Below are positions 6,658-63,799 of a stretch of DNA of 64,000 nt, in pieces. The notes below the pieces were generated by a model. It searched no databases and was not told the DNA's origin. It saw only the letters and a program-made list of their open reading frames with translations. Position 1 is the stretch's first letter. Every line of letters starts with the position of its first letter. Origin of the DNA: an uncultured Gemmatimonadales bacterium (GTDB lineage Bacteria; Gemmatimonadota; Gemmatimonadetes; Gemmatimonadales; GWC2-71-9). Made by a program: the position numbers and the translations under genes. Where the stretch lies: the NCBI GenBank assembly GCA_963795085.1, contig CAWCFX010000004.1:704001-768000 (forward strand), given 5' to 3'.

Positions 6658-6729
6658 GAAATTGAAGAAATTGAGGGAATTGAGGGAATTGAGGGAATTG
6701 ATGGAATTGAGGGAATTGAGGGAATTGAG
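6658..6729 (+). repeat. 9-bp tandem array (GGAATTGAG)x8
   Basis: Read directly; begins 1 nt after the stop at 6656. Confidence 0.95.
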
Positions 6730-6734
6730 ACGAA

Positions 6735-6774
6735 AACGGGGGATCCTTCCAGAGCCGTGGAGAGATCCCCCGTT
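6735..6774 (-). terminator. Hairpin between convergent genes, probable intrinsic terminator
   Basis: AACGGGGGATC...GATCCCCCGTT 11-bp inverted repeat; short T-run on the minus strand. Confidence 0.6.
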
Positions 6775-6793
6775 CGGTCCAGCCCAGCCCAGC

Positions 6794-7246
6794 TCAGGAA
6801 GATGTTGCTTTTCGGTCAAAGATCTTGTTCACGATCTGCCACTGCCCGTTGATCTTGAGCAGGGACATGTAATCGGTGAGGACGGCATTGGCCGAGGTCA
6901 GCCTGAGCTTGGCGACGGCCGCCGTCCCTGAAATATCTATCGAGACGATCTCCTTCCTGGTCTGGTCCGGGGTTGATCCAGCGGCCCGGGGGGCGGCCAC
7001 CCGGGACAGGTAGTCGGGAAAGATCGGCATCCGCACGAACTGGGTGTCCCGGACGAAGAACATCATCGCGACCTTGTTGAATGCCTTCGCGACGACGGCG
7101 GAATCCCTGGCGGTCCCCCCCTCGAAGTAGTACCCGACCACCTTCCGGATAGCTTCCTCGTCCGGGTTCGCCGGCCGGGCAGCCAGCAGGGGGACGCTGA
7201 CCAGTGCCAATCCCATGACGGCCAGGGCTCGAACACGATTTGTCAT
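6794..7246 (-). CDS. Secreted NTF2-like (putative lumazine-binding family) protein
   Basis: Signal peptide, SIDISGTAAVAKL..TDYMSLLKINGQWQIVNK; GGAG RBS before ATG 7246. Confidence 0.85.
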   Translation of the reverse strand: MTNRVRALAVMGLALVSVPLLAARPANPDEEAIRKVVGYYFEGGTARDSAVVAKAFNKVAMMFFVRDTQFVRMPIFPDYLSRVAAPRAAGSTPDQTRKEIVSIDISGTAAVAKLRLTSANAVLTDYMSLLKINGQWQIVNKIFDRKATSS

Positions 7247-7303
7247 TGCAGTAGCTCCAGGTTTGGCGTAAATCCCGCTCACCTCTCGATTGTCACTCGT
7301 CAT

Positions 7304-8656
7304 TCACTCCCGGTAGTGCAGTCGCGCGATCCTCGCCGGGTTCTTCCCCGGCGACTCTCCATATGCCAGCCAGACGTCGCCCCGTTCCGAATCTACCCAC
7401 AGGTGGCGGACCAGCGCGCCATTGGTGGGAAGCCCGTAGGTGGTAAACTGCCGGGTGACCGGATCGTAGGCGAACACCGCGTCGGCGGCGCCGGTTCCTA
7501 CCCAGACCGTTCCGGTAGCCGAGTCCACCCGCGCGACGTAGGGCGCGGCATCCTTGATCGGGAGCGCGATCTCCTCGAACAGCCTGAGGCGGGGGTCAAA
7601 CCGTACCAGGGTTCCCCCCCCATAGGCCGGGATCCACAAAATCCCGTTCCGGTCCACGTCGAAACGGCGGGGGCCGCTGTGGGCGGTGGGCATGGGGAAC
7701 GCCTCGGCGGCGCCGGTCCGGGGATCGAGCACCACCATCCGGTTGCCCTGCAGTTCGCTCATCCAGATTCGCCCGTCCGGTGCGGCGCGGAGCTCGTAGG
7801 GGATGGGTCCTCCTCCTCCGGTCGCCAGGTCCGGGTGGAGGGGCAGGTCGTGGGTGCGAATCTCGCCCGCCGCCGTGACCTCCTTGATCTGCTCCGGGTT
7901 GCGGGAGAAGTGGCCGTTCGCGTAGGCGCTTCCGTTTACCCCCAGCGCGATGCTGTGGGCGTAGAATCCGATGTCGAACCAGGTCCAGCTGCCCCCGTCG
8001 TAGCGGCCGACCTGTCCGGGGCCGCCCAGGACCACCCACCAGCGGCCTTCCTTGTCGATGTCCACCGCACGCGGATTGGCGTGGTCGAACATGTCCACCG
8101 GCGTCCAGATGCCCAGGGTCGGCTCCAGCGAGTACATCTTGTGGGAGAACATCCCGGTCACGATGACCCGGCCGTTCCGGTCCACCGCCACATCGTGCGG
8201 CAGGTCGCCGCCCACGGGAAAGAGGTATTCCCGCACCCGGTCGGACGGTGCCGGGCCGTTTGCCGCCGGCTGGGTCCGCTGCCTGGGGAGGTGGCGGGCC
8301 AGCCAGGCCGCGCTGCCGGCCGGGGTCTGCGCCGCCGAAATGACCGGGAACCCGGAACTGGGCCCGGCAAATCCGAGCATCCGCTGGATCGCGGCCGACC
8401 AGTCCGCCTCGCTTCGAGGCTGCCCGCCAGGCTGGGTCCGTACCGCATCAAACTGGTGACAGCCGGTGCAGTCAATGATGAACTGACGCTTCTCCGGCCC
8501 ATCAGGCAGCAGCGCCAGCCACGCCGAGCTCGGCGCCGTCGTATCGGCGGAGATGGCTGCGGGAGTCGAGGGGGCCAGGCGGAAGGACGTCAGCGCGAGC
8601 CCGAGGACGCCGGTGGAGACCAGCAGTATCCGGCCCGAAGTCGGGAAGTTTGGCAT
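7304..8656 (-). CDS. Secreted cytochrome c (CxxCH) + Vgb-like beta-propeller protein
   Basis: Signal peptide, CTGCH, repeated blades (PHDVAVD, PRAVDID, PRRFDVD). Start uncertain (8656 or 8713). Confidence 0.8.
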   Translation of the reverse strand: MPNFPTSGRILLVSTGVLGLALTSFRLAPSTPAAISADTTAPSSAWLALLPDGPEKRQFIIDCTGCHQFDAVRTQPGGQPRSEADWSAAIQRMLGFAGPSSGFPVISAAQTPAGSAAWLARHLPRQRTQPAANGPAPSDRVREYLFPVGGDLPHDVAVDRNGRVIVTGMFSHKMYSLEPTLGIWTPVDMFDHANPRAVDIDKEGRWWVVLGGPGQVGRYDGGSWTWFDIGFYAHSIALGVNGSAYANGHFSRNPEQIKEVTAAGEIRTHDLPLHPDLATGGGGPIPYELRAAPDGRIWMSELQGNRMVVLDPRTGAAEAFPMPTAHSGPRRFDVDRNGILWIPAYGGGTLVRFDPRLRLFEEIALPIKDAAPYVARVDSATGTVWVGTGAADAVFAYDPVTRQFTTYGLPTNGALVRHLWVDSERGDVWLAYGESPGKNPARIARLHYRE

Positions 8657-8740
8657 TCCGGCATTACGAACCAGTCTCGGTCCGGTTTCGCGGCTGGGCC
8701 GATTACTTTTCATGGATGTAACCCTTTTCCCGAGCCGAAC

Positions 8741-9634
8741 ATGAACGAAGTTGACTATCCCTATCTGATCGCCATCGCCACCCTGGCCTCCCGGGCCGAT
8801 GGGCACTCCGGGGTCGCCGAGCAGGAGGCCATTGACCGGGTGCTGGACCGGATCGGGCGGCCCGACGTCTCCGATATCTCGCGCCGTGCCGCGGCGGGGG
8901 AACTCCGGCTGGCGGACCTGGCCGGCAAACTGTCCAGCGAGGAGAGCCGCCGGCTGGCCTACGAGACCGCCTTGACCGTCTGCAACGCCGATGGGTCCGC
9001 CAACCTGGCGGAGCAGACCTTTCTCGAGGAGCTCCGGGACAAGCTTGGGCTTACTCCGGCGAGCGTGCAGGACATGACCGCCACCGCCGGACAACTCGCC
9101 GGCTCCCCGCTGCCCGAAAGCGGCACCGCCGGCGCCGGCCCGCCGGACCACGGTGACATGATCCTGCAGCATGCGATGCTGACGGGTGCCCTCGAGTTGC
9201 TGCCGGATCGTTTGGCCAATATCGCGGTGCTCCCGGTGCAACTGCGGATGGTGTACCAGATCGGCCAGGGCCACGGCCAGAAACTGGATGCCAGCCAGGT
9301 AAAGGATCTCGCGGCGACCATGGGCCTGGGCATCGCTGCGCAGGCGGTCGAGAGCGTCGTCATCAAGGCAGTGGGGGGTCTGCTCGGCGGTCTACTGGGC
9401 GGCGCGTCCCGGGTGGCCGGCGGCGCGGCCATCACCTTTGCCGCCACCTATGCGCTGGGACATGTCGCCGACCAGTACTACGCCCAGGGCCGCACCCTGA
9501 GCGCGACGGACCTGAAGGCGCTCTTTACCAGGTTCCAGTCGGATGCGAAGACACTGTATCCCCGGGTGCAGGAACAGATCCAGGCTCAGTCGCGATCGCT
9601 CAACCTGGCGGCGGTGCTGGACAAGGTGAGGTAG
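8741..9634 (+). CDS. TerB-like + DUF697-like domain protein
   Basis: ASRADG..EQEAI and VCNADG..EQTFL TerB-like motifs; LPVQLRMVYQIG and FAATYALG in the C-half. Confidence 0.78.
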   Translation: MNEVDYPYLIAIATLASRADGHSGVAEQEAIDRVLDRIGRPDVSDISRRAAAGELRLADLAGKLSSEESRRLAYETALTVCNADGSANLAEQTFLEELRDKLGLTPASVQDMTATAGQLAGSPLPESGTAGAGPPDHGDMILQHAMLTGALELLPDRLANIAVLPVQLRMVYQIGQGHGQKLDASQVKDLAATMGLGIAAQAVESVVIKAVGGLLGGLLGGASRVAGGAAITFAATYALGHVADQYYAQGRTLSATDLKALFTRFQSDAKTLYPRVQEQIQAQSRSLNLAAVLDKVR

Positions 9635-9763
9635 GAATTGAGGGAATGGGGGAATTGAGGAATTGATGGAATTGATGGAATTGAGGGAATTGAGGGAATT
9701 GAGAAATTTGCTGCCAATTCCCCCATTCCCCCATTCCCTCAATTCCCCCCTCCCCTCAATTCC
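9634..9763. repeat. Head-to-head 9-bp arrays (GGAATTGAG)n ... (CTCAATTCC)n
   Basis: Left arm ~9634-9709, right arm ~9715-9763; fills the gap between two convergent stops. Confidence 0.92.
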
Positions 9764-21494: not shown

Positions 21495-22868
21495 ATGCTT
21501 CGTCTCCCGCGTCACCTCCCGTGGTTGGTTGCTATCTCGTTCGCATCATTGAGTTTGGCCGCATGCTCGGAGGACGATCGCCAGTCCGCCACCGCCCCGG
21601 ACCTGGCCGCCGCCCACGCCCTGAGCCTGCCCGACTCGGTTCGGGCGCTGGCCGCCGGCCGGGGGATCGGGCCGCTGCCGACCCCCTCCACCGTTCGTCC
21701 GGCCCTGGTCCGGCTGGGCCAGTTTCTCGCGTTCGACAAGATTCTCTCCGGCAACCGGGACATCGCCTGCATGACCTGCCACATGGCCGAATTCGGGACC
21801 GGCGATGGACGGAGTCTTTCGGTTGGCCAGGGCGCGAGCGGGCTGGGGAAACGCCGCAACCACCCCCAGGGGCTCTTCATTCCCAGGAACGCACCGCCCC
21901 TCTTCAACATGACCGCCCTCACCACACTGTTCTGGGACGGGCGGGTAACCACGGACAATCTGGGGAACTTTCACACCCCGGCTGGTGCCGAGCTGACTGC
22001 GGAGATGGCCGGTGTGTTCGAGTTCGGGCCGCTGTCCGCGCTGCCATTGTTCCCGGTGCTCTCCCGCGAAGAGATGCGGGCGTTCAGCGGCAACGAGCTG
22101 GCTGACGTGCCGGACGCCGACCTGCAGGGAACCTGGTCCCTGCTGATGCAGCGGCTGGGGGCGATACCGCAATACCGGGCCCTGTTCGAGGCCGCCTATC
22201 CGGGAACCGCATTCGACGACATGACCTTCGCACATGCCAGCAACGCTATCGCGGGGTTCATCATCCAGAAGCTCAACTTCAGCAACACACCGTGGGACCG
22301 CTTCCTGGCTGGAAACGACCGGGCCATGAACGAGCGACAGCTGGAAGGAGCCCGGCTCTTCATGGAACTGCGCTGCTCCATCTGCCACAACGGCCCGGCC
22401 TTCACCGATAACCAGTTCCATAACGTGGCGCTGGCCCAGTTCGGCCCCGGCAAGGGCAATGGCCCGGGGCTGAACGACGATTTCGGGCGGATGAACGTGG
22501 ATGGCCGCCCGGAGTCGCAGTACGCCTTCCGAACCACGCCGCTGCGCAACGTGGTGCTCTCGGCGCCGTACGGGCACGATGGGGCCTTCTTCAGCCTCCG
22601 GGACTTCATCGGGCACTACAGCGAGTCCGACCTCAAGCTGCGGGCCTTCGATCCCATGGGCCTGGAGCAGCTTCTCCAGGGCACCCTGCTGGCCAACGCG
22701 GACGCCATCCTGGCCACTCGGGATACTATCCTTGATGGCGTGGTTATCCCCGATGCCCTGGTGGACCAGCTGGTTGATTTCATGTCCGCCCTGACCGACG
22801 ACCCGCGAAACTACCCCAGCGTGGTGCCGAAAAAGGTGCCGAGCGGGTTGCCGGTGGACGCACCTTAA
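21495..22868 (+). CDS. Di-heme cytochrome c peroxidase/MauG-family lipoprotein
   Basis: LAAC lipobox, CMTCH, CSICH, RNAP, FWDGR, FRTTPLRNV, PYGHDG. Confidence 0.9.
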   Translation: MLRLPRHLPWLVAISFASLSLAACSEDDRQSATAPDLAAAHALSLPDSVRALAAGRGIGPLPTPSTVRPALVRLGQFLAFDKILSGNRDIACMTCHMAEFGTGDGRSLSVGQGASGLGKRRNHPQGLFIPRNAPPLFNMTALTTLFWDGRVTTDNLGNFHTPAGAELTAEMAGVFEFGPLSALPLFPVLSREEMRAFSGNELADVPDADLQGTWSLLMQRLGAIPQYRALFEAAYPGTAFDDMTFAHASNAIAGFIIQKLNFSNTPWDRFLAGNDRAMNERQLEGARLFMELRCSICHNGPAFTDNQFHNVALAQFGPGKGNGPGLNDDFGRMNVDGRPESQYAFRTTPLRNVVLSAPYGHDGAFFSLRDFIGHYSESDLKLRAFDPMGLEQLLQGTLLANADAILATRDTILDGVVIPDALVDQLVDFMSALTDDPRNYPSVVPKKVPSGLPVDAP

Positions 22869-22869
22869 A

Positions 22870-22960
22870 CACGGCGTAAGACAGGGCGGTATATCAGGGC
22901 GGTAAGACAGGGCGGTAAGACAGGGCGGTATAACAGGGCGGTATAACAGGGCGGTATGAC
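22870..22960 (+). repeat. 13-bp tandem array (GGCGGTAWRACAG) ~7 units
   Basis: Read directly; starts just after the stop at 22868. Confidence 0.92.
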
Positions 22961-22965
22961 TCCAA

Positions 22966-23100
22966 TGACCCACTGTCCCACTGTCCCACTGACCCACTGT
23001 CCCACTGTCCCACTGACCCACTGTCCCACTGTCCCACTGACCCACTGTCCCACTGTCCCACTGTCCCACTGCCCCACTGACCCACTGACCCACTGACCCA
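22966..23100 (-). repeat. 8-bp tandem array (TGWCCCAC) ~17 units
   Basis: Read directly; reverse complement of the 41121-41274 array unit. Confidence 0.95.
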
Positions 23101-34493: not shown

Positions 34494-34612
34494 AGAACAG
34501 CGGCGGCATAAACACGGCGGTAGAACAGCGGCGGTAGAAGAGCGGCGGTAGAACCCAGTTTTCCGCCCGTTTTCTACCGCCGCTCTTCTACCGCCCTTTT
34601 GTCTACCGCCCT
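34494..34612. repeat. Head-to-head 13-14 bp arrays (GGCGGTAGAASAGC)n ... (TTCTACCGCC)n
   Basis: Perfect 24-bp inverted repeat 34530-34553/34572-34595; begins at the stop at 34493. Confidence 0.9.
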
Positions 34613-34669
34613 TATTAGCCAGTTCTTGCGTTTTCCCGCCCCGGAGGCATCTTATCAGGCCCAGCCTAC

Positions 34670-41117: not shown

Positions 41118-41120
41118 ACA

Positions 41121-41274
41121 CAGGGGGACAGTGGGTCAGTGGGACAGTGGGACAGTGGGTCAGTGGGACAGTGGGACAGGGGGACAGTGGGACAGTGGGA
41201 CGGTGGGACAGTGGGTCAGTGGGACAGTGGGACAGTGGGACAGTGGGACAGTGGGACAGTGGGACGGTGGGACA
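41121..41274 (+). repeat. 8-bp tandem array (GGGWCAGT) ~19 units
   Basis: Read directly; starts 3 nt after the stop at 41117. Confidence 0.95.
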
Positions 41275-42527: not shown

Positions 42528-42573
42528 CTTGCCCTCCTTGCCCCCTTGGCCCCCTTGCCCCCTTGCCCCCTTT
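42528..42573 (-). repeat. 8-bp degenerate array (CCCCTTGC)n
   Basis: About five units just upstream of the Smr gene. Confidence 0.8.
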
Positions 42574-42579: not shown

Positions 42580-42924
42580 ATGTCCGGCGTCCTGACCATC
42601 AACATCAAGGCCGACATGCCCACGGTGGAGGAGGCGCGGAAGCGGCTCCTCGCCGAGCTGGCCAGTGCCAGGGCGAAGGGGTTTACCGCGATCAAGCTGA
42701 TCCACGGCTACGGTTCCACGGGGCAGGGCGGGGCGCTCCGCGACGGGTTACGCCGGTCGCTGACCCTCCGGCGGAAAGAAGGAAAGATCCGGTCCTGGAT
42801 CGCCGGCGAGCGCTGGGATCCCTTCGAAGCGGCGGCGCGGGAGATGATGGACGCGTGTCCCGAGCTGGCGCGGGACCGGGACATCGGGATGGGGAACGAG
42901 GGGGTGACGGTGGTGCTGTTGTGA
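42580..42924 (+). CDS. Stand-alone Smr/MutS2 C-terminal domain protein
   Basis: TVEEAR, LIHGYGSTGQGGALR, terminal GNEGVTVVLL. Confidence 0.85.
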   Translation: MSGVLTINIKADMPTVEEARKRLLAELASARAKGFTAIKLIHGYGSTGQGGALRDGLRRSLTLRRKEGKIRSWIAGERWDPFEAAAREMMDACPELARDRDIGMGNEGVTVVLL

Positions 42925-42968
42925 GTGCAGAGTGCAGAGTGCAGAGTGCAGCGTGCAGCGTGCAGCGT
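42923..42968 (+). repeat. 7-bp tandem array (GMGTGCA) ~6 units
   Basis: Overlaps the Smr stop codon. Confidence 0.9.
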
Positions 42969-44678: not shown

Positions 44679-44757
44679 CTGCACTCTGCACTCTGCACTC
44701 TGCACTCTGCACTCTGCACTCTGCACTCTGTACTCTGTCACTCTGCCCTCTGCCCCT
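44679..44757 (-). repeat. 7-bp tandem array (CTGCACT) ~11 units
   Basis: Abuts the RES gene stop; reads GAGTGCA on the minus strand. Confidence 0.93.
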
Positions 44758-45715: not shown

Positions 45716-46011
45716 GGGGGAATGGGAATGGGAATGGGGAATTGAGGGAATTGAGGGAATGAGGGAATTGAGGGAATGTGGGAATTGTAAAGGCATCCTC
45801 CAATTCCAACATTCCCTCAATTCCACCATTCCCTCAATTCCCCCATTCCCTCAATTCCCCCATTCCCTCAATTCCAACATTCCCTCACTTCCAACATTCC
45901 CTCAATTCCAACATTCCCTCAATTCCCCCATTCCCTCAATTCCAACATTCCCTCAATTCCAACATTCCCTCAATTCCAACATTCCCTCAATTCCAACATT
46001 CCCTCAATTCC
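45716..46011. repeat. Head-to-head GGAATTGAG/GGGAAT arrays; right arm built of a 17-bp composite unit (CAATTCCAACATTCCCT)
   Basis: Left arm ~45716-45788, right arm ~45799-46011, between divergent genes. Confidence 0.93.
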
Positions 46012-46032: not shown

Positions 46033-48660
46033 ATGCCCCCTCATCTCGATCGCCTCAAGACCCTCCTCCGGGAGCGCTACGCCATCGAGCGCGAACTCGG
46101 CAGCGGGGGGATGGCCACGGTCTATCTCGCCGAGGACCTGCGGCACCACCGCAACGTGGCGGTCAAGGTGCTCCGCCCGGAGATCGCCGCCTCCCTCGGC
46201 AGCGAGCGGTTCTTCCGGGAAATCGAGGTGGCCGCACGGCTGCAGCATCCCCACATCCTCCCCCTCCTCGATTCCGGCGAAGGCGACGGGCTCTACTGGT
46301 TCGTCATGCCCTATGTGGCGGGGGAATCGCTGCGCGACCGGCTGACCCGGGAGGGCGAGCTGCCGGTGCACGACGCGGTGAAGATCCTGGCCGAGGTGGT
46401 GGACGCGCTGGCCGCGGCGCACGCGGAGGGCGTGGTGCACCGGGACATCAAGCCGGACAACGTGATGCTTTCCGGCCGACATGCGCTGGTGACCGACTTC
46501 GGGGTGGCCAAGGCGGTGAGCGAGGCGACCGGCCGGCAGACGCTGACCACCGCCGGGGTGGCCCTCGGCACCCCGTCCTACATGGCGCCGGAGCAGGCGA
46601 CGGCCGATCCCCAGCTCGACCACCGGGTGGACATTTACGCCGCGGGAGTGTTGGGCTACGAAATGCTGACGGGCAGCCCGCCGTTCGTCGGGCGGAGTGC
46701 GCAGGAGATCCTGGCGGCGCAGGTAACCCAGGCGCCGATGGCGATCACGGCCCGGCGAGCCGCGGTGCCGGCGGCGCTCGAGGCGGTGCTGATGAAGTGC
46801 CTGGAGAAGCGCCCCGCCGACCGGTGGCAGCACGCGGAGGAGCTGCTGGCCCAGCTGGAGGTCCTGGCCACGCCGAGCGCGGGGATGACCCCGGTCCAGA
46901 CCCGGCCGATCCCCGCGGTGGCGGCGCCGCCCCGGCAGTTTCCCCGTTGGGCCGCGTGGCTCACGGGCGGGGCGCTGGTGGCGGGCGGCGCGCTGGCGCT
47001 CAGCCTTCGGCAGTCGCCGCCCGACCTGGTGCGGCTTGGTCAACGCACCGTGGTGGCGGCCGAGCCGGCGTTCGAGGGCTGGCCCTCGCTCTCGCCGGAT
47101 GGGAAAGTCATCGCCTATGGCCGGTGGGAGGCGGGCGTCCAGGAAGTCATCGTGCAGCAGGTGGACGGCGGGGCGCCTGTCGTGGTGACCGCCCCGGTGC
47201 CGGGCGCCAACGGCTTGTCGGCCATCTCGCCCGATGGAAGCCGGATGCTCATGGTCGGCGACGATGGGCTCTACCTGATGCCCACCCTTGGGGGCCAGGC
47301 GCGGGTGGTCGCGACCGCGCCCGCCCTGTTCCCGGCCTGGTCAGCGGATGGCTCCCGGTTTGCCTTCGTCGGCGGCGGTGCGCTCGACACCCTCTACCTG
47401 CAGGCGCTGGAGGGGTCGGGCCGCACGGTGATCGCGACTGGGGCGATGATCCATTCTCCCGCCTGGTCCACCGATGGCGAATGGGTCGCCTACGTGGAGG
47501 GGAACGTCTTTTTCCATACCAGGGGAAACACGGCGCCCAGCTCTCTCAAGCTGGTCCGCGCTTCGGGGGGCACGCCCATCGCGCTCAGCGATTCGACTTC
47601 GCTCAACACGAGCCCGGTGTGGATCCCCGGGCGGCGGGCGCTCCTGTTCATCAGCAATCGCGAAGGGGGGCGGGACATCTACCAGCTGGAGGTGAAAGGC
47701 TCGGGGCAGCCGCAGGGCAGGGGCGTCAGGATCACCACCGGCCTCAACCCGGAACGGCTCAGCTTCTCGGCGGACGGCCGCCGGCTGGCCTGGTCGGTCC
47801 TGACCCAGACCTCGAACGTGTGGTCCATCGCCATTCCCGGCCGGGACTCGGTGCCGCTCTCCCGGGCCCGCCAGGTGACCAGCGGAACCCAGAATATCGA
47901 GAACGCAGTGGTGTCCTCCGACGGGTGGCTCTACTACGACTCGGACCGGAGCGGCAACTTCGATATCTGGCGGATTCCCCTGGCCGGCGGCCAGCCGCAG
48001 CAGCTCACCACCGATCCCGCCGATGATTTTGCGCCGGATCCCTCACCCGACGGTAAGCAGGTGGCCTTCCACTCCACGAGAAACGGGGTCAACAACCGGG
48101 ACATCTTCGTGATGCCTGTAGGGGGAGGAGCGGCGGTCCAGGTTTCGACCAGTCCGGGGGACGATCGCGGCCCCAACTGGTCGCCGGATGGCCGGTTCCT
48201 GTCCTGGGGTGATAACTACTCCGACAGCGGGGTGCTGTTGGTGGAGCAACAGCCCCGCGGCGGCTGGTCGGCCCCGAGACGGTTCCTCGGCCACGGAGGA
48301 GATTCCTGGTCAGCCGATGGGCGGTTTGTAATCTTCGATTCGCTGGGCATGCACCTCGTGGATCCGGGCGCCGGGGGGCGCAGCCTGCTGCTCTCCATGC
48401 AGGCGATAGGAGGCCGGGGCTTCTCCTACAGCGTCCTGTCCGCCGACCTGCGCACCGTGTACGCCCCGAGAGTGGACAGCACCGGCCGGTTTTCCATCGT
48501 GGCCTTTCCGGTGGGAGGGGAAACCTCCCGCACCCTGGTGTACGCCGATAACCCGCTGGCACAGCAGCACCGCTACGGGCTGGAGGTGTCCGGCGGCCGG
48601 TTCTATGTGCCGGTGTTGGAGGCGAAGCTGGACGTATGGGTGGGGGAGGTGAGGCAGTGA
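46033..48660 (+). CDS. Ser/Thr protein kinase with TM and TolB-like (PD40) propellers
   Basis: GSGGMA, HRDIKPDN, DFG, YMAPE; repeated SPDG/WSxDG blades. Confidence 0.93.
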   Translation: MPPHLDRLKTLLRERYAIERELGSGGMATVYLAEDLRHHRNVAVKVLRPEIAASLGSERFFREIEVAARLQHPHILPLLDSGEGDGLYWFVMPYVAGESLRDRLTREGELPVHDAVKILAEVVDALAAAHAEGVVHRDIKPDNVMLSGRHALVTDFGVAKAVSEATGRQTLTTAGVALGTPSYMAPEQATADPQLDHRVDIYAAGVLGYEMLTGSPPFVGRSAQEILAAQVTQAPMAITARRAAVPAALEAVLMKCLEKRPADRWQHAEELLAQLEVLATPSAGMTPVQTRPIPAVAAPPRQFPRWAAWLTGGALVAGGALALSLRQSPPDLVRLGQRTVVAAEPAFEGWPSLSPDGKVIAYGRWEAGVQEVIVQQVDGGAPVVVTAPVPGANGLSAISPDGSRMLMVGDDGLYLMPTLGGQARVVATAPALFPAWSADGSRFAFVGGGALDTLYLQALEGSGRTVIATGAMIHSPAWSTDGEWVAYVEGNVFFHTRGNTAPSSLKLVRASGGTPIALSDSTSLNTSPVWIPGRRALLFISNREGGRDIYQLEVKGSGQPQGRGVRITTGLNPERLSFSADGRRLAWSVLTQTSNVWSIAIPGRDSVPLSRARQVTSGTQNIENAVVSSDGWLYYDSDRSGNFDIWRIPLAGGQPQQLTTDPADDFAPDPSPDGKQVAFHSTRNGVNNRDIFVMPVGGGAAVQVSTSPGDDRGPNWSPDGRFLSWGDNYSDSGVLLVEQQPRGGWSAPRRFLGHGGDSWSADGRFVIFDSLGMHLVDPGAGGRSLLLSMQAIGGRGFSYSVLSADLRTVYAPRVDSTGRFSIVAFPVGGETSRTLVYADNPLAQQHRYGLEVSGGRFYVPVLEAKLDVWVGEVRQ

Positions 48661-48909
48661 GAGTGCAGAGTGCAGAGTGCAGAGTGCAGAGTGACGAGTG
48701 ACGAGTGCAGAGTACAGAGTACAGAGTACAGAGTGACGAGTACTGAGTAACTAATCCTTGTTCAAATCACCAACGTTGTTGTCCGCCTTTGCCGGTTCAG
48801 ATCCCTAACCCCCTGACCCCCTTTCCTTGCCCCCCTGCCCTCCTGCCCCCTTGCCCCCTTCCTGTCCCACTGACCCACTGACCCACTGACCCACTGTCCC
48901 ACTGTCCCT
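48661..48909. repeat. Head-to-head mixed arrays: (GAGTRCA)n left; (CCCCYTGC)n + (TGWCCCAC)n right
   Basis: Left arm 48661-48749 begins at the stop; ~50-bp spacer; right arm 48803-48909 ends at a -35 box. Confidence 0.92.
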
Positions 48910-50375: not shown

Positions 50376-50390
50376 GTGCTGAGTGCCGAG
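50364..50390 (+). repeat. Short 7-bp array (TGAGKRC)n
   Basis: Contains the ankyrin gene stop codon. Confidence 0.7.
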
Positions 50391-51801: not shown

Positions 51802-51884
51802 CCTCACCCCTGACCCCTCTCCAACCTCACCCCTGACCCCTCTCAAACCTCACCCCTGGCCCCTCTCCATTTCATGGAGAGGGG
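51802..51884. repeat. Three 23-bp CCTCACCCCTGRCCCCTCTC units ending in a hairpin (REP-like/terminator)
   Basis: Units at 51802, 51825, 51848; stem CCCCTCTCCAT/ATGGAGAGGGG. Confidence 0.85.
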
Positions 51885-53885: not shown

Positions 53886-54407
53886 GTGCCACACAGCGAC
53901 CCATCGGTGGACGAACTGTTCAGCCTCACTTACGAGGAACTGCGCCGGCTGGCCGCCACGGTCAGCCGGGGCGACCCCGCGCTGACGCTCACACCCACCG
54001 CCCTGGTCAACGAGGCGTGGCTCAAGCTCCACGGCTCTCCCCGGCTCGCGGGGCTCTCACACCTTCACTTCAAGCGGATCGCGGCCCGCGCGATGCGGCA
54101 GGTGCTGGTCGAAGCGGCCCGGCGCCGGCTGGCCGAAAAGCGGGGCGGCGGTGAAGCCATGGTGACCCTGGACGAGGGAGTGGACGCTGCCCCCTCGACC
54201 GGCGAGGAAGTCCTGGCGCTGGAGGCCGCGCTCGAGGAGTTGGGCCGCCGGAACCCGCGCCAGGCCGCGATGGTCGAGTACCGTTTCTACGGCGGTCTCG
54301 ACGCGACCGAGATCGCGGCCCTGCTCGAGGTCTCCGAGGCGACGGTGCTGCGCGACTGGCGGGCGGCCCGCGCCTGGCTGGCCCACGAGCTTCGGATTCA
54401 ACGATGA
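53886..54407 (+). CDS. ECF sigma factor, TIGR02999-like
   Basis: YEELRRLA, TLTPTALVNEAW, RAMRQVLV, KRGGG, VSEATVLRDW. Confidence 0.9.
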   Translation: MPHSDPSVDELFSLTYEELRRLAATVSRGDPALTLTPTALVNEAWLKLHGSPRLAGLSHLHFKRIAARAMRQVLVEAARRRLAEKRGGGEAMVTLDEGVDAAPSTGEEVLALEAALEELGRRNPRQAAMVEYRFYGGLDATEIAALLEVSEATVLRDWRAARAWLAHELRIQR

Positions 54408-57001
54408 CCGGGCCTTCCGCCGCCGAGCGCTGGGAACGGGTCCAGCAGCTCTTTCACGACGCGCTGGACCGAACCCCGGAAGAGCGCGAGGCCTGGGTTA
54501 CCGCCGCCGCGGGCGACAACCCCGGCCTGGCCGCCGAGGTGATGGCGATGCTCGCCGCCGATGAGGACCATGGCCTGCTCGACCGCGGCGTGGCGGACGC
54601 CGCCGGCCAGGTGCTGGGCGGGCCCGGACCGGCGCCGCTTCCCACCGGCCGGTTCGGCCCCTATCGGGTGCTCCGGGTGCTTGGCGAGGGCGGGATGGGC
54701 GTCGTTTATCTCGCCGAGCGGGAGGACCTCGGGACCAGTGCGGCGATCAAGATCCTCCGCGACGCCTGGCTCTCGCCGGCCCGGCGGGAACGGTTCGACA
54801 GCGAGCGGCGGACCCTGGCCCACCTGAACCATCCCTCGATCGCCCGGCTGTTCGATGCCGACGCGCTCCCCGACGGCACGCCCTGGTTCGTGATGGAGTT
54901 CGTCGAAGGCGTCCCCCTCTTCACCTATTGCGTCGCCCGGTCGGCCCCGCTGGAGGAGCGCCTCAGGCTCTTTCGCGCGGTGTGCGAAGCGGTCCACCAT
55001 GCCCACTCCCACCTGGTGGTGCACCGCGATCTCAAGCCGTCCAACATCCTGGTCAAGAACGACGGGACCATCAAGCTGCTGGACTTCGGCATCGCCAAAC
55101 AGCTGGAGAGCCTCGACGGCCCGGTGGACCAGACCCGGACCGGGCTCCGGCTCCTGACGCCGGCCTACGCCGCGCCCGAGCAGCTGCGGGGCGAGCCGGC
55201 CGGTGTCGCCGGCGACATCTACTCGCTGGGCGTCATTCTCTACCAGCTCCTGTCCGGCCGGCTGCCGTTCGAGATGACCGGCGCCGCCGGCGACCTCGAA
55301 GCCGTCCTCTCCGAGCGCGAGCCCGAGCGCCCGTCGGCGGTGGCCCGCCGGGACGGGGCAGGGGAGAACGCACCGCCCGATGCCCGGTCGCTCAGCCGGT
55401 CGGCATGGGCCGACCTCGACGTGCTCTGCCTGACCGCCATGCGGAAGGACCCGGCCCGCCGCTACCGCTCGGCCGAAGCGCTGATGCGGGACGTGGACCA
55501 GTACCTCGCCGGCGAGCCGCTGGACGCCCGGCCCGACAGCCTGGGCTACCGGCTGGGCAAGTTCTCCCGGCGGAACTGGCGGCCGCTCACGGTAACCGCG
55601 GCACTGCTGCTCGTGCTGATCGGCGTGGTCGGGTTCTATACCTGGCGCCTGGCCCAGGCGCGGAACGCCGCGGTCGCGGAGGCGGCCCGCACCCAGCGGA
55701 TCCAGGGGTTCATGCTGCGCCTCTTCTCCGATGACGAGGTCGGGCCGGCCGACACGCTGCGGGTGGTGACGCTGCTCGAGCGGGGTTACCGCGAGGCGCA
55801 GGCGCTGGACCAGGACCCGGCCGTGCGGGCCGAGCTGTACGCGACGCTGGGCGGGATCTTTCAGCAGCTGGGCAACCTCGACCGGGCCGACACCCTGCTC
55901 ACCGCCGCGCTGGCCGAGCGCCGGCGGGTGCTGGGCGAGGAGCACGCCGACGTGGCCGACAACCTGGTGGCCCTGGGTCTCCTCCGGAACGCGCAGGCTT
56001 CCTATGACGAAGCCGACAGCCTGGTCCGGGAAGGACTGGCCATGAACCACCGCACCCTGCCGCCGAACCACCCGGCGATCGCGGGGGCGCTGGTGTCGCT
56101 CGGCGAAGTCCTCATCGAGAAGGGAGAGTACGACAGCGCGGTCGTCGTGCTGGAGGACGCTGTCGCCCGGCAGCGCGGGGCGGGCTCGGCCCCGGCCGAC
56201 CTGAGCGTCAGCCTCACCGACCTGGCCAACGCCCATTACTATGCCGGCCGCTACACTGTCTCCGACTCACTGAACCAGCGGGTGCTGGACATTGACCGCC
56301 GGGTCTTCGGCTCCCACCACCCCAACGTGGCGATGGACCTGATCAACCTCGGCGCCATCCAGTTCGAGGCGGGCAAGTATCCCGCCGCCGAAGAACGCTA
56401 CCGGCAGGCGCTGGAGATCCTGCGGCCGTGGTACGGGGCGGAACACCCCGAGGTCGCCTCAGTCCTCACCATGCTCGGCCGCGCGATGGTGGCGCAGGAC
56501 CGGAACGAGGAGGCCGCCGGCATTCTCCAGCAGGCGCTGGCGATCCAGGAGCGCGCCTACGGGCCGGTGCATCCCCGGGTCGCGTCCGCGCTGAACGAGC
56601 TGGGCAAGGTGGCGCAGGACCAGGGCAGGCTGGACGACGCCGAAGCCAGCTTCAGGCGGATGGCGGAGATCTACCGGCAACTGTACGACGATCGCCACTA
56701 CCTGATCGGGGTCGCGCTCTCCAACCTGGCCGGGGTGTACGTGGATGCGAAGGCATACGACCGGGCGGAGGCGCTCTTCCGCGACGTGCTCCGGCGGTAC
56801 GCCGAGGTGCTGGATCCGGGGCACCAGTTGATCGGGATCGCCCGTACCCGCTATGGCCGGACCCTGCTGCGTCACGGCCGCCTGGCCGAGGCTGCGGTGG
56901 AGAGCCAGCGCGGCCTGGACATCCTGCTTCAGCAGGACGACCCGCCCCAGGCCTGGATTGACATGGCCCGGAAGGACCTGGCCGAAGCGGCGGCGAAGTA
57001 A
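54404..57001 (+). CDS. Ser/Thr protein kinase with TM and TPR repeats
   Basis: GEGGMG, HRDLKPSN, DFG, APE; HPxVA TPR repeats; ATGA overlap with the sigma gene. Confidence 0.93.
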   Translation: MTGPSAAERWERVQQLFHDALDRTPEEREAWVTAAAGDNPGLAAEVMAMLAADEDHGLLDRGVADAAGQVLGGPGPAPLPTGRFGPYRVLRVLGEGGMGVVYLAEREDLGTSAAIKILRDAWLSPARRERFDSERRTLAHLNHPSIARLFDADALPDGTPWFVMEFVEGVPLFTYCVARSAPLEERLRLFRAVCEAVHHAHSHLVVHRDLKPSNILVKNDGTIKLLDFGIAKQLESLDGPVDQTRTGLRLLTPAYAAPEQLRGEPAGVAGDIYSLGVILYQLLSGRLPFEMTGAAGDLEAVLSEREPERPSAVARRDGAGENAPPDARSLSRSAWADLDVLCLTAMRKDPARRYRSAEALMRDVDQYLAGEPLDARPDSLGYRLGKFSRRNWRPLTVTAALLLVLIGVVGFYTWRLAQARNAAVAEAARTQRIQGFMLRLFSDDEVGPADTLRVVTLLERGYREAQALDQDPAVRAELYATLGGIFQQLGNLDRADTLLTAALAERRRVLGEEHADVADNLVALGLLRNAQASYDEADSLVREGLAMNHRTLPPNHPAIAGALVSLGEVLIEKGEYDSAVVVLEDAVARQRGAGSAPADLSVSLTDLANAHYYAGRYTVSDSLNQRVLDIDRRVFGSHHPNVAMDLINLGAIQFEAGKYPAAEERYRQALEILRPWYGAEHPEVASVLTMLGRAMVAQDRNEEAAGILQQALAIQERAYGPVHPRVASALNELGKVAQDQGRLDDAEASFRRMAEIYRQLYDDRHYLIGVALSNLAGVYVDAKAYDRAEALFRDVLRRYAEVLDPGHQLIGIARTRYGRTLLRHGRLAEAAVESQRGLDILLQQDDPPQAWIDMARKDLAEAAAK

Positions 57002-59041: not shown

Positions 59042-60703
59042 ATGCCACCTCCTTCCCGACCCCAACCGGGCCACCCCGCCATCCTCGAGCGGGGACTCGA
59101 TACCTCCAGCGGGTCGGAGTTCGTACGGGAGCGGCTGGCGCTGCTGGCCCGGACCCTGTTCCTCGTCTCCTTCGGCTTCTATCTCTTCCTGCTGGCCAGC
59201 CTGGTCCTGCTGGGCGGCGCCCCCTTCGGCGCGGTGTTACTGGCCCCGGCCTCCCTGGGACACCTCGCCGCCAGCCTCACGATGGCCCTGCTCTGGTGGC
59301 TGGCCCGCCGGACGCGGGCCATCCCCCTTGGCCTGGGGGCGCTCGATGCGCTCGGCTTTGTCCTGGCCGGCGGGTTTCTGTCGTTCATGACCGTGGAGGA
59401 CGAGGGACAGATCCTGCAGACCCTGCTGGCCCTGACCGTGACCGTCATGCTCCGCGCGATCCTGCTGCCCTCCCGGCCGGGCCGGACCATGCTGCTCTCC
59501 GCCCTGGTCTTCGTCCCCACCGTGGCGGTCTGTATCGGGTTCCACGCGCCCACCGCCTTCCTGCCGGGATTCGCCGCCGGGTATCAGAAGTTCCACATGA
59601 CCCTCAACACCATTCTCTGGAGCGTGCTGGGGACGACGCTGGCCACCATCACCTCGCGGGTGACCTACGGGCTCCGGCGGCAGGTCGCCGAGGCGCGCGA
59701 GCTGGGGCAATACGTCCTGGAGGAGAGAATCGGGGGCGGCGGCATGGGCGATGTCTGGCGCGCGCGGCACCGCCTGCTGATCCGGCCGGCCGCCATCAAG
59801 CTGATCCGCCCCGAGGCGCTGGGAGCGATCTCCGGCGACGCCGAGCTGCTGCACCGGCGCTTCGAGCGGGAAGCGCGGGCCACCGCGGCGCTCAAGTCGC
59901 CCCACACGGTGCAACTGTACGATTTCGGCGCGACCGATGACGGCACCCTGTACTACGTCATGGAGCTGCTCGACGGTCTCGATCTCGACACCCTGGTCCG
60001 GCAGCACGGCCCGCTGCCGGCCGAGCGGGCCATACATCTCCTGCGCCAGGTCTGCGCGTCGCTGCTCGATGCGCACCGGAACGGGCTGGTGCACCGGGAC
60101 ATCAAGCCGGCCAACATCGTGGTCAGCCGGGCGGGCACCACGTTTGATTTCGTCAAGGTGCTCGACTTCGGACTGGTCAAGCTTGACGCGAGCCGCGCCA
60201 CCGGGGACGACGCCGTGGCCCGGCTCAGCGCGGAAGGCAGCACCAGCGGCACGCCGGCCTTCATGGCGCCGGAGGTGATCCTGGGGGACGCCGTGACCGA
60301 CCACCGGGTCGATCTCTACGCGCTGGGTTGCGTCGGGTATTGGCTGCTGACCGGCAAGCTGGTCTTCGAGGGTGAGAGCGCGATGCAGGTGCTGGTCCAC
60401 CACGCGAAGACCCCGGCGCCGCGGCCGTCCAGCCGGGTCGCCTGGCCCATCCCGGCCCAGCTGGAGGACCTGGTCATGGCCTGCCTCGAAAAGGATCCGG
60501 CGTCCCGCCCCGCCAGTGCGGAGGAGGTAAGCGCGCGGCTCGGCGCCGTGCCCCTGGCCTCGGCGTGGACCGCGGTTCGGGCGGAGGAGTGGTGGGCCGC
60601 GCACCGGCCGCCCGCGCCGGATGCGCGGCCGGTGGCGGACCTGCTGCTGTCGCAAGAGGGGAGGGAGTTGCGGGTGGGACCGGGGGTCAGGCCTCGGCAG
60701 TAA
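59042..60703 (+). CDS. Ser/Thr protein kinase with N-terminal multi-TM sensor
   Basis: About six TMs, then GGGGMG, HRDIKPAN, DFG, FMAPE. Confidence 0.92.
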   Translation: MPPPSRPQPGHPAILERGLDTSSGSEFVRERLALLARTLFLVSFGFYLFLLASLVLLGGAPFGAVLLAPASLGHLAASLTMALLWWLARRTRAIPLGLGALDALGFVLAGGFLSFMTVEDEGQILQTLLALTVTVMLRAILLPSRPGRTMLLSALVFVPTVAVCIGFHAPTAFLPGFAAGYQKFHMTLNTILWSVLGTTLATITSRVTYGLRRQVAEARELGQYVLEERIGGGGMGDVWRARHRLLIRPAAIKLIRPEALGAISGDAELLHRRFEREARATAALKSPHTVQLYDFGATDDGTLYYVMELLDGLDLDTLVRQHGPLPAERAIHLLRQVCASLLDAHRNGLVHRDIKPANIVVSRAGTTFDFVKVLDFGLVKLDASRATGDDAVARLSAEGSTSGTPAFMAPEVILGDAVTDHRVDLYALGCVGYWLLTGKLVFEGESAMQVLVHHAKTPAPRPSSRVAWPIPAQLEDLVMACLEKDPASRPASAEEVSARLGAVPLASAWTAVRAEEWWAAHRPPAPDARPVADLLLSQEGRELRVGPGVRPRQ

Positions 60704-62025: not shown

Positions 62026-62060
62026 CAGCGTGCACCGTGCACCGTGCAGCGTGCAGCGTT
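62026..62060 (+). repeat. 7-bp array (CASCGTG)x5
   Basis: Fills most of the gap between the AlkZ-like and ERCC4 genes. Confidence 0.85.
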
Positions 62061-62062
62061 GC

Positions 62063-63124
62063 CTAGACCCAGCGGGCCTTGTCGCCGCGGCCGCTCTTTA
62101 CCAGCACTCCTTCCTTCACCATCTGTCCCAGCACCCGCTTGATCCTGCTCACCGGCGCCTCGGGGAACCGCTCCTGCACCTGGCTCAGCGCGAAGGGGCG
62201 AGGCAGCTCGGCGGTCGCCGCGTGGCGGATCCGCTCATCCAGGCCCGCCTCGCGGGGGAAGGGATCGTAGTTCCGCTCGATGTCCAGCGCCAGCTGGGGA
62301 GCGGACTCGAGGCGAGTCCGGGCGATGGCCAGGAAGAAGTTGTGGGTCCAGGCGTTGGCCGCCTTGCGGTTGCCGGCATAGACGATGGGCAGGGTCGGGT
62401 GGAGCGCCGCCAGCTCGGCCAGCACCCGGGCCAGGTGTTCCGGGGGCCAGCGGCCGGCCATCTTCCGCGGGTTGAGGAAGTCGCGGTACTCCGCCTCGAT
62501 CACCAGGGCGGCGTGGCTCAACCCGGCCAGGTCGGAGAGCTGGTGGTGCAACCCCTGGATCTTGCCGACCTCGCCCAGCAGGTTCTCGAACGTCTTCCGC
62601 TCCACCGCGGCGAGCACCAGCCCGTCCTGGACCAGGGCGTAATCGCCGCTGGCCAGCCTGCGCCGAGCCTGCGTGGCCCCGGGAAAGCGCCAGGGGTAGC
62701 GCTCGGCGCTGTCCACGACGACTTCCAGGTTCTCCGGCATCGCCCGCAGCTCGACCCGGCCGCCGGAGCGGTGGGCCCGGATCCCCCGCTCGGTGCGGAA
62801 GAAGACCTGCTCCACCATCTCGCCGCCGTTCTTCGCCGGCTTCTGGATCGCGAGAAACTCGCAGCGCTTGCGGTGGGGGCGGTCCAGCACCACGCTCAGC
62901 TTGCGGCCGACCCGGGAGAGCTGGGCGACGGGCACCCGTTCGACAAAGTCGAGCGGCTCGTCGGCCTCCACCTCGCGCTCCCGGAGACAGAAGACCTGCT
63001 GGCCCGGTCCGGGCCACGCCTCCTGGGTGCGGAAGGCGGCCAGGACTCGGCCGTGCTGCTCCAGGCTGATGCGGTAGCGAAAGCGCCGGTGCTCGGTGCG
63101 TTCGAGGGTCCAGGTGGTGGACAT
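62063..63124 (-). CDS. ERCC4 (XPF/Mus81-type) nuclease domain protein
   Basis: VVDSAE, GDY, VERKT, LVIEA; C-terminal winged-helix-like segment. Confidence 0.85.
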   Translation of the reverse strand: MSTTWTLERTEHRRFRYRISLEQHGRVLAAFRTQEAWPGPGQQVFCLREREVEADEPLDFVERVPVAQLSRVGRKLSVVLDRPHRKRCEFLAIQKPAKNGGEMVEQVFFRTERGIRAHRSGGRVELRAMPENLEVVVDSAERYPWRFPGATQARRRLASGDYALVQDGLVLAAVERKTFENLLGEVGKIQGLHHQLSDLAGLSHAALVIEAEYRDFLNPRKMAGRWPPEHLARVLAELAALHPTLPIVYAGNRKAANAWTHNFFLAIARTRLESAPQLALDIERNYDPFPREAGLDERIRHAATAELPRPFALSQVQERFPEAPVSRIKRVLGQMVKEGVLVKSGRGDKARWV

Positions 63125-63132
63125 GCCTTAAA

Positions 63133-63213
63133 AGTGCAGAGTGCAGAGTGCAGAGTCCAGAGTGAGAACAAAGAGTACTGAGTACTGAGTGCTGAGGGCT
63201 GAGTGCTGAGTAC
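63133..63213 (+). repeat. 7-bp arrays (AGTGCAG)n then (AGTRCTG)n
   Basis: Starts 8 nt from the ERCC4 start codon. Confidence 0.9.
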
Positions 63214-63353
63214 CGCCACGGAGGGCACGGGTCCGGGCGTGGGGTGGATCACATCCCGCCGCCGTGCCGAGGGGGTAAGGTGCTTCTCCGGCGGGGAAAA
63301 CATCTCGTGCGACATTCCCACGGATTGACCCGCAGACTCTTGGGAGGTGCACC

Positions 63354-63731
63354 ATGCTGGCAAGCGCCAATGCCGTTGCGACCATCGCGGTCCGGGACCT
63401 GGACCGTGCCACCGACTTCTACCGCGACACCCTGGGGCTCAAGCCGGTCGAGACCGGGGAGGAGGGAGTCGCCGGGTTCAAGAGCGGTGATTCCAGTGTC
63501 CTGGTGTATCAGTCGCAGTTCGCGGGCACCAACCAGGCCACCTCCGCGACCTGGATCGTCGGCGACCGGCTGGACGAGATCGTCGAGGGGTTGCGGGGCC
63601 GAGGGGTGCGCTTCGAGCATTACGACCTGCCGGAGACCACGCGCCAGGGCGATATCCACGTGAGCGGGAAAACGAAAGTCGCCTGGTTAAAGGACCCGGA
63701 CGGGAACATTCTTTCGCTGGTGAATGGGTAG
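63354..63731 (+). CDS. VOC (glyoxalase/bleomycin resistance) family protein
   Basis: VRDLDRATDFYRDTLG, AWLKDPDGNIL; GGAGG RBS. Confidence 0.9.
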   Translation: MLASANAVATIAVRDLDRATDFYRDTLGLKPVETGEEGVAGFKSGDSSVLVYQSQFAGTNQATSATWIVGDRLDEIVEGLRGRGVRFEHYDLPETTRQGDIHVSGKTKVAWLKDPDGNILSLVNG

Positions 63732-63743
63732 GAGGGAGAGGGG

Positions 63744-63799
63744 CGAGTACAGAGTGCAGAGTGCAGAGTGCAGAGTGCAGAGTGCTGAGGACTGAGTAA
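63744..63799 (+). repeat. 7-bp array (GAGTGCA)n
   Basis: Follows the VOC gene stop. Confidence 0.9.

Follow-up and report, generated by a model that had tools for sequence, protein, structure and literature searches.

Two described systems resemble the element reported here, each in different respects. In Coxiella burnetii, the intervening sequence (IVS) of 23S ribosomal RNA (rRNA) contains an S23p open reading frame (ORF), a 28-bp terminal stem that RNase III cleaves, and a strain-dependent number of tandem heptamers; the passages of Warrier et al. 2016 (PMC4990558) drawn on here treat it as a selfish element and cite older proposals of the IVS as a mobile element. In Xanthomonas, arrays of the heptamer GGGAATC form 70–75 convergent pairs, always with one array per strand; the arrays overlap stop codons and are closest to the ORF at their 5' side, in whichever direction that ORF is read (excerpts of Rehm et al. 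2015, PMC4692102). The stretch analysed here, 64,000 nt from an uncultured Gemmatimonadales bacterium (positions 704,001 to 768,000 of contig CAWCFX010000004.1, assembly GCA_963795085.1; hereafter the window), carries intergenic tandem arrays with the polarity of the Xanthomonas pairs, and elsewhere in the same genome such arrays enclose a small gene for a four-helix-bundle protein of the PF05635 family, to which the Coxiella IVS protein also belongs. We read the arrays as the terminal arms of small insertable four-helix-bundle cassettes, together with gene-less and single-arm copies, and put the probability of this reading at roughly 0.65.

'Long simple sequence repeats' with units of 5–11 nt were reportedly described by Mrazek et al. 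in 2007; these and the cyanobacterial short tandemly repeated repetitive (STRR) sequences are, like the present arrays, short-unit, intergenic, tandem and patchy among taxa. According to a passage of PMC6344855, no periodic repeat of prokaryotic intergenic DNA is more abundant than tandem heptamers, and there is 'no clear clue' to what they do. The cyanobacterial TAACTGA repeats are mostly direct and are found just upstream of start codons (as stated in part of PMC4679880), whereas the arrays described here are paired in inverted orientation, obey a G-first polarity and are linked to a gene cassette. A closer likeness is to the Xanthomonas GGGAATC and Nostoc GGGGA(C/T)T arrays, which are intergenic, have 7-nt units in tandem and follow the same polarity rule; the polarity itself is already published for the Xanthomonas repeats (PMC4692102). 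The excerpts of Rehm et al. used here deal with one family, regarded as quadruplex-forming regulators, and contain no mention of a four-helix-bundle gene. The present arrays belong to at least five families with units of 7–17 nt, some of which, such as GAGTGCA, have no G-runs.

The four-helix-bundle proteins of PF05635 make up a very common family whose function outside diversity-generating retroelements is not known. Within these retroelements, a passage of PMC10053308 equates the family with Avd. Intergenic tandem heptamers and PF05635 proteins are two puzzles that one genome joins here, and no paper linking the family to genome-wide polar arrays was found in the literature outside subscription journals and database family comments.

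The genome that contains the window (here G000, in which the window is C4:704001-768000) is 3,885,868 bp long, in 6 contigs, with 67% G+C and 93% completeness. Gene calling with a codon model fitted to this same genome gave 3247 genes and a coding share of 86%; the calls are crude and their start codons approximate. Tandem Repeats Finder (TRF), run on the whole genome with thresholds of at least 3 copies, a score of at least 50 and a period of 5–40, finds 339 merged arrays. They are intergenic in 317 instances and genic in 22, and the commonest periods are 8, 7, 9, 17 and 13 nt. According to an earlier note on this DNA, the G/purine-rich strand is on top in the left arm and on the bottom in the right arm of every two-armed site, whatever the direction of the flanking genes. 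This is so at all five such sites of the window, and it extends to the whole genome. When neighbouring intergenic arrays less than 120 nt apart are taken as pairs (n=47), 38 run G then C (GC) and none C then G (CG), the others being GG (3), CC (3) or pairs with an unskewed member (3); GC order is found in 32 of the 36 pairs in which both flanking genes score at least 30. Similarly, the 311 oriented arrays are distributed over 249 gaps, and among the 57 gaps with two or three arrays the order is G then C in 44 and C then G in one. GC pairs are present in gaps of every type (10 convergent, 5 divergent, 10 tandem+ and 13 tandem-).

Because reverse complementation turns a G-then-C pair into a G-then-C pair again, a strand-specific process such as transcription or replication cannot explain the polarity. 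Both processes were considered and rejected. Array orientation shows no link to local GC skew (odds ratio 1.32, p 0.24), which excludes the replication strand, and tandem gaps contain 95 sense-G and 91 sense-C arrays, which, with the symmetry of the GC pattern under reverse complementation, excludes the strand of transcription. The orientation of the TRF arrays is non-random across the genome, as the earlier note had anticipated. The inward-facing arrays are real and have one polarity throughout the genome.

That they were produced by faulty assembly is an idea to which we attach next to no weight. The assembly has only 6 contigs, in which the arrays are embedded in unique sequence at 317 sites, and the same structures recur in finished plasmids and in other genomes. 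The earlier note had made its claim depend on raw reads, and here the support is partial. In Logan contigs from four public runs, all soil metagenomes of one study, the flanks have a depth of 2–4 and 39-nt repeat unitigs a depth of 21–26, which places the unit words at 5–10x flank depth; no contig bridging an array was found among the short Logan contigs of these four runs, and this is the point on which an artefact could be argued.

The position of the arrays relative to genes is also distinctive. Arrays occupy 63 of 232 convergent, 161 of 1479 tandem and 25 of 372 divergent gaps. Single arrays have the 5' end of their G-rich strand proximal to a gene in 136 cases and distal in 49. The same rule had been claimed for single arms at large, and it holds at the 3' ends of genes, where, of 172 arrays with a stop codon facing the 5' end of their G-strand, 132 begin no more than 10 nt from this codon and 63 contain it. 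It fails at the 5' ends of genes, from which the G-strand 5' end is separated by a median distance of 46–67 nt and where there is no side preference. The 5'-side nearness described for Xanthomonas arrays has the same limits in this genome: it is obeyed at gene 3' ends and not at gene 5' ends. A stop codon in at least one frame is found along the G-rich strand in 172 of 297 arrays and along the C-rich strand in 78 of 297. Runs of three to five G (G3-5) are present in the units GGGACAGT, GGGGCAAG and GAGGGAATT and absent from GAGTGCA and GCGTGCA, as judged from the letters of the units.

Part of this picture could be accommodated if the arrays were autonomous simple-sequence repeats that arose by slippage and were kept or tolerated as hairpin terminators, insulators or G-quadruplexes, with the four-helix-bundle genes as later lodgers in the hairpin loops. 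Their enrichment at gene 3' ends, seen in the occupancy of convergent against divergent gaps, and the beginning of arrays at stop codons, as in a terminator, are both in keeping with this explanation. So is the quadruplex-like spacing of G3-4 in many units; similar units are reported to fold in vitro (PMC4692102, same excerpts). We nevertheless consider it unlikely, because independent slippage cannot give one 7–17-nt unit and its variants at ~40–60 loci, and because of the behaviour of the protein clades described below.

The link between arrays and a gene comes from a search of the genome for TIGR02436, which gave 6 matches, 5 of them over the cut-off. All five genes over the cut-off are located between inward-facing arms of their cognate unit, in agreement with the statement in the earlier note that such repeats surround TIGR02436 genes. 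The arms are 450–520 nt apart in four of the five; the fifth gene (L053, C1:181150-181850) has a frameshift near its N-terminus and arms of ~2 units. All five also match PF05635 ('23S rRNA intervening-sequence protein'), and the closest solved structure to the cassette protein is XCC0516 of Xanthomonas (PDB id: 2GSC). None of the five was found by our own gene caller. The G+C content at third codon positions (GC3) of the four arm-flanked genes is 0.63–0.76, against a median of 0.85 and a 5th percentile of 0.77 for small genes, a composition compatible with foreign origin. Each cassette carries a different unit, and these units are the main array families of the genome (GCGTGCA being a variant of GAGTGCA). 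All insertion sites in G000 are between protein genes, and insertion in a 23S rRNA helix was not seen there. No transposase is associated with the gene-bearing cassettes. In a scan with a single cassette protein, which returned only two loci, the nearest named relatives were in two Gemmatimonadota assemblies; this points to the same phylum for G000, though weakly, as the gene may be mobile. A fragmented copy of the four-helix-bundle gene, detected with our own hidden Markov model (HMM), is located at C1:717216-717398 beside a GATTGCC x5 arm.

Three other G...C pairs with a wide spacing (565–599 nt) contain ordinary genes, among them those of an adenylate kinase and a hydrolase, so that spacing alone is not diagnostic of a cassette. 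TIGR02436 has no match inside the window, which has gene-less arms only. The statement in the earlier note that the window encodes no candidate enzyme is correct for reverse transcriptases and four-helix-bundle genes alike.

Homologous arms of the window sites are predicted by RNA folding to form hairpins on either strand, with z-scores of -6.6 to -10.2 (-6.6 on the plus strand and -8.1 on the minus strand at 9634..9763, -9.1 at 34494..34613 and -10.2 at 45718..46011). The heterologous pair at 22890-23030 forms no hairpin (z -0.4) and keeps the polarity all the same, which is difficult to reconcile with an origin by slippage. The two arms of a pair have 7-mers in common in 25 of the 38 GC pairs, against 9.7 expected and a maximum of 18 in 2000 shuffles. 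The spacers of gene-less pairs are short and mutually unrelated, and the arms of a pair are unequal in length.

It was this geometry that led the earlier note to telomerase-like healing, in which templated G-rich units are added to the 3' ends on both sides of a break before these ends are joined, so that head-to-head arms are left behind. The geometric fit is exact: on either side, the 5'->3' direction of the G-rich strand leads away from the flanking gene and host sequence abuts the 5' end of that strand, and the unequal arms and short unrelated spacers agree with such a history. The other evidence makes it very improbable. RVT_1 has 0 matches in this 93%-complete genome, so that the search for a reverse transcriptase, suggested in the same note, came back empty. 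Outer units are not more degenerate, nor inner units more homogeneous (self-periodicity of 0.859 in outer and 0.841 in inner units, p 0.26, 107 arrays), and arms of the same family are paired far more often than expected. Moreover, healing does not predict one gene family between the arms at five of five loci and in other phyla, and the same design is found in what reads as a 23S rRNA gene and in operons, where repeated breaks are implausible. A stretch of ~1.5 units, such as a template RNA would hold, is contained in every array.

The association of arms and gene is not restricted to G000. Among 31 genomes of the order, G000 included, TIGR02436 is present in 26, and 30 of its loci were read (G018 contributes only one row of the tallies and locus L019, which has no arms). 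At 22 of the 30 loci there are arrays on both sides of the gene, with the order G then C in 16, C then G in 2 and low-skew or ambiguous units in 4. The unit families are patchy among the relatives and follow the cassettes, as is evident from a pattern search of the 31 genomes. (GGGACAGT)4 has 374 matches in G000 and 75 in G030, a member of another family of the order that has a cassette with GTGGGACG arms, and no matches in the others. (GGAATTGAG)3 has 148 matches in G000 and 10 in G003, and (GAGTGCA)4 is shared by the five genomes of the genus to which the window belongs and is absent from the remainder. (AGGGTGT)4 is confined to genus g17, the cassettes of which carry it, apart from two 3-mismatch matches in G001. 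GGAAGCG is most frequent in G023 (222 matches; ten other genomes also have it) and TAGGGGC in G020 (89 matches; five other genomes), both of which possess a matching cassette. Close +/- pairs run + then - among the matches listed, as picked by eye. The regions of G026 and most of those of G025 were picked around known matches and are unusable as density estimates. TRF found no 7-9-mer arrays in 170 kb of G012 and 149 kb of G009, a null result that is misleading for G012 because the pattern search later found GGAAGCG arrays there.

At one orthologous cassette locus of genus g17 (L003 in G028, L005 in G026 and L007 in G020), the flanking proteins are 82–94% identical and the cassette proteins 60–64%, and the arms differ on both sides in concert (AGGGTGT vs TAGGGGC), which points to either fast concerted change or in-place replacement of the cassette. 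Elsewhere, similar four-helix-bundle proteins are found in non-homologous flanks. Those of L011, L017 and L023 are 57–63% identical and have arms with a common GGCGGT core, while the arm of L024, the fourth member of this clade, is GGACGGGAC and lacks the core. If the genes were lodgers in repeats made by slippage, the clade of a protein should be unrelated to the unit of its arms; yet each paralogue in G000 has a unit of its own, and L011, L017 and L023, though not L024, keep their core at non-homologous loci. The patchy spread of units among relatives is likewise left without an explanation by slippage. In G026, the loci L077, L078, L079 and L083 have heptamer arrays AGGGGTT / CCCTAAC alongside the AGGGTGT family.

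The same layout is found outside the order. A tblastn search of plasmid records with one cassette protein returned 28 records, from Nostoc, Calothrix, Trichormus, other cyanobacteria, Azospirillum and Riemerella, and 12 loci were read. The G/purine-rich arm is upstream and its complement downstream of the gene in 10 of the 12, and one locus is ambiguous. In the upstream arm, the first unit contains or adjoins the host stop codon. The genes separated by a compact insert are cas10 and cmr3, cas6 and cas4, the two subunit genes of ribonucleotide reductase, and secretion genes. At the Azospirillum plasmid locus L099 the unannotated flanks read as 23S rRNA and the gene is enclosed by G-rich and then C-rich tandem arms; by this reading of its flanks, L099 is itself an IVS of 23S rRNA. 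At the cyanobacterial plasmid loci L096, L103 and L097, where the gene is within CRISPR-Cas operons or between ribonucleotide-reductase subunit genes, the arms reach back to the upstream stop codon on one side and forward to the downstream start codon on the other.

A number of observations weigh against the cassette reading. The first is numerical: there are 38 gene-less pairs and 5–7 gene-bearing cassettes, and when solo arms are included the gene-less forms exceed the cassettes by more than 40 to 1, a disproportion that also speaks for slippage. No remnant of a four-helix-bundle gene was found in the spacers of the 38 gene-less pairs, and it is their shared units and polarity that suggest their descent from cassettes. 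In about 8 of the 38 pairs the two arms come from unrelated families and the polarity is nonetheless obeyed, so a single palindromic element is insufficient as an explanation. For the AAGGGGGC family, with its 19 arrays, the assembly contains no cassette, and our own HMM detects a divergent four-helix-bundle copy at C1:470449-470802 that has no arms and a near-normal codon composition (GC3 0.81). In the relatives, 4 of the 30 cassette loci are without arrays; G012 and G022, which are 95–97% complete, bear GGAAGCG or TAGGGGC arrays with no TIGR02436 match, so that a resident cassette is not required, an observation that again suits slippage. The G-first order has exceptions at L001 and L025, both with low-skew units, and at the remaining plasmid locus (L103, Pseudanabaena), which has direct A-rich arrays on both sides; in addition, G015 has two C-then-G pairs with a wider spacing of ~180 nt. 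Finally, no presence/absence allele was found among the relatives, in which same-genus genomes are 72–80% identical in orthologous genes. At the orthologous loci examined in G003 and G004 the arrays are absent or the neighbours different, and a metagenome scan with a flanking protein returned only relatives of 32–54% identity and no empty or filled alleles.

These points bear on a second proposal of the earlier note, that the paired arms are what is left when a repeat-flanked mobile gene is lost. Its first half is borne out by the five TIGR02436 genes between cognate arms. Its second half is not: as the 38 spacers are short, unrelated and devoid of gene remnants, copies that are gene-less as such are likelier than 38 separate gene losses.

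The cassette would have the form of a G-rich tandem arm, a PF05635/TIGR02436 (Avd-like) gene and a complementary C-rich tandem arm. With the order 5'-G-arm...C-arm-3' on both strands, every copy looks inward-facing, and neither the direction of adjacent genes nor that of the replication fork makes a difference. In a transcript the arms may pair into a long stem cleavable by RNase III, by analogy with the Coxiella IVS (PMC4990558, same passages), and removal of the stem could allow the insert to be tolerated between genes, even inside operons or rRNA. As to why the G-rich arm comes first, our preferred guess is that selection acts on whatever comes into the element from its surroundings. Stop codons being commoner on the G-rich strand, a G-rich arm would close incoming reading frames from either side. 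Furthermore, transcription of the G-rich arm first might keep C-rich, Rho-loading RNA from exposure before the stem forms.

Under the cassette reading, the classical rRNA IVS would be a special case of this layout. The likeness to the Coxiella IVS consists in the PF05635 protein, in terminal inverted repeats that flank an ORF and form a long stem, and in tandem heptamers of variable copy number beside the ORF (PMC4990558, in the passages cited). Unlike the rRNA IVS, the inserts described here are between protein genes, their arms are long, with up to ~20 units in tandem, a single genome contains several unit families, and gene-less pairs and solo arms exceed the gene-bearing copies. Also, the stem of the rRNA IVS is cut by RNase III, whereas the hairpin potential reported here is a computed property only.

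The arrays further resemble MITEs (miniature inverted-repeat transposable elements) and repetitive extragenic palindromic (REP) sequences or their hairpin-forming doublets (REPINs), in that small, non-coding, hairpin-forming intergenic copies exceed a gene-bearing form. They differ from all of these in that the gene-bearing form has no transposase and that the ends are tandem arrays instead of unique terminal inverted repeats. Mobilization of REP/REPIN-type palindromes by a REP-associated tyrosine transposase (RAYT; Y1, IS200-like) could be entertained, given that the arrays form hairpins and that Y1_Tnp has matches at four places in the genome (one full-length, one partial and two that are pieces of one broken gene). 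This we hold to be scarcely tenable. The Y1 transposase genes are not associated with the arrays: those of 7–17-nt units flank none of the three Y1 loci, and near them there is just one array, a 24-mer x9 of unrelated sequence that is located ~100 nt upstream of the broken copy on C4. The full-length copy is flanked by a different, non-tandem palindrome, and a REP element consists of one short palindrome, whereas the present arrays are tandem and of many unit families. The full-length Y1 gene (C3:370163-371310), with its own palindromic repeat, suggests a REP/RAYT system in its own right.

How a cassette without a transposase might spread invites a more speculative extension, which we consider improbable. 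In it, the geometry seen by the earlier note would be mechanistically right, with the cassette as the agent in place of a telomerase. The Avd-like protein could be the sequence-specific subunit of a transposase-free copying process. Such a process might lay unit-specific tandem arms on the two 3' ends of a target break, or maintain and extend existing arrays, by means of a host polymerase and a cassette-borne template. If true, this would explain why both arms of a site have one unit but unequal lengths, why each protein paralogue has its own unit family genome-wide, and why the 5' ends of G-strands abut host sequence. It would also explain the concerted change of arms from AGGGTGT to TAGGGGC at the orthologous g17 locus.

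The arrays of the window, as found by TRF over the 64 kb and by site-by-site inspection of the nucleotide sequence, are listed in Table 1 with the cassettes of the genome. All intergenic sites at which the earlier note had reported tandem arrays are detected by TRF, one of them weakly, and the array that it had set aside as uninformative is indeed so. By our own gene calls and family matches, the two-armed sites are in a convergent gap (9634), in tandem gaps (22870, 34494 and 48661) and in a divergent gap (45716). The unit families of the window, written along the G-rich strand, are AATTGAGGG with its 17-mer compounds, ACAGTGGG/TCAGTGGG, GAGTGCA, GGGGCAAG and the 13-14-mers with a GGCGGTA core.

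Table 1. Tandem arrays of the window (window coordinates) and cassettes of genome G000 (contig:position)
Feature	Location	Strand of G-rich arm	Details
Solo arm, AATTGAGGG x7.8	6660..6729	+	TRF; G-strand starts 3 nt past stop of gene 3279-6656; convergent gap
Two-armed, one family	9634..9763		GGAATTGAG x8 at 9634-9703, G on top; 13-nt spacer; complement at 9717-9763; stop codons of both convergent genes touch the arms
Two-armed, heterologous arms	22867..23100		13-mer ACAGGGCGGTATA x5.9, G on top (22867-22960); then CCCACTGT/CCCACTGA x16.5, C on top (22962-23100); tandem gap ahead of cupin gene at 23112
Two-armed, 14-mers	34494..34613		AGAACAGCGGCGGT x4.4 (34494-34554); 8-nt spacer; complement x3.6 (34563-34613); tandem gap; left arm begins at stop codon
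Solo arm, ACAGTGGG/TCAGTGGG x19.4	41120..41274	+	Starts 2 nt past stop at 41117
Solo arm, CTTGCCCC x5.4, C-rich on top	42528..42572	-	TRF; almost fills 66-nt gap ahead of Smr-domain gene at 42580
Solo arm, GAGTGCA x6.1	42923..42965	+	Stop codon of upstream gene overlaps first unit
Solo arm, CTGCACT x10.6	44679..44753	-	G-rich on minus strand; ends 2 nt from stop of minus-strand RES toxin gene at 44756
Two-armed, divergent gap	45718..46011		GGGAAT(TGA) units at 45718-45787, G on top; 13-nt spacer; 17-mer CAATTCCAACATTCCCT x12.4 at 45801-46011; Xre antitoxin gene on minus strand, kinase gene on plus strand
Two-armed	48656..48908		AGTGCAG-type x12 (48656-48749), G on top; 53-nt spacer; C-rich arms 48803-48908 of two other families, CCCCTTGC-type and CCCACTGA/CCCACTGT; kinase stop overlaps left arm
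19-nt array, weak (2.7 copies)	50372-50390		TRF; noted earlier at 50364
C-rich 23-mer x3	51802..51869	-	57 nt downstream of stop of minus-strand gene 51927-53663; polarity conforms
CGTGCAC x4.4, near-palindromic	62029..62059	.	Fills gap; noted earlier at 62026
Solo arm, AGTGCAG x11.4	63133..63211	+	Divergent gap; 8 nt from 5' end of minus-strand gene 62063-63124
Solo arm, GAGTGCA x6.4	63745..63797	+	13 nt past stop at 63731
Cassette	C6:19715		Unit AATTGAGGG and its 17-mers
Cassette	C6:720760		Unit ACAGTGGG
Cassette	C1:1140502		Unit GAGTGCA/GCGTGCA
Cassette	C2:35362		13-15-mers with GGCGGTA core

The gene content of the window is otherwise ordinary and includes extracytoplasmic function (ECF) sigma factors, Ser/Thr kinases, an Lhr-like helicase and a RES/Xre pair. 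At 18148-21384 and at 53907-57001, an ECF sigma factor gene of the TIGR02999 type overlaps or abuts a large Ser/Thr kinase gene, which makes two such pairs, and further kinase genes are located at 46033-48660 and 59042-60703. The RES toxin and Xre antitoxin genes form a type II pair (44756-45655) that is bordered by a solo arm at the 3' side and by a two-armed site at the 5' side. A longer repeat at 50945-51186 consists of a 63-nt unit in 3.9 tandem copies, the 27-nt core of which occurs 39 times in the genome (with at most 3 mismatches), on C1 and C4 only; this dispersed family is distinct from the short-unit arrays and has no relation to them.

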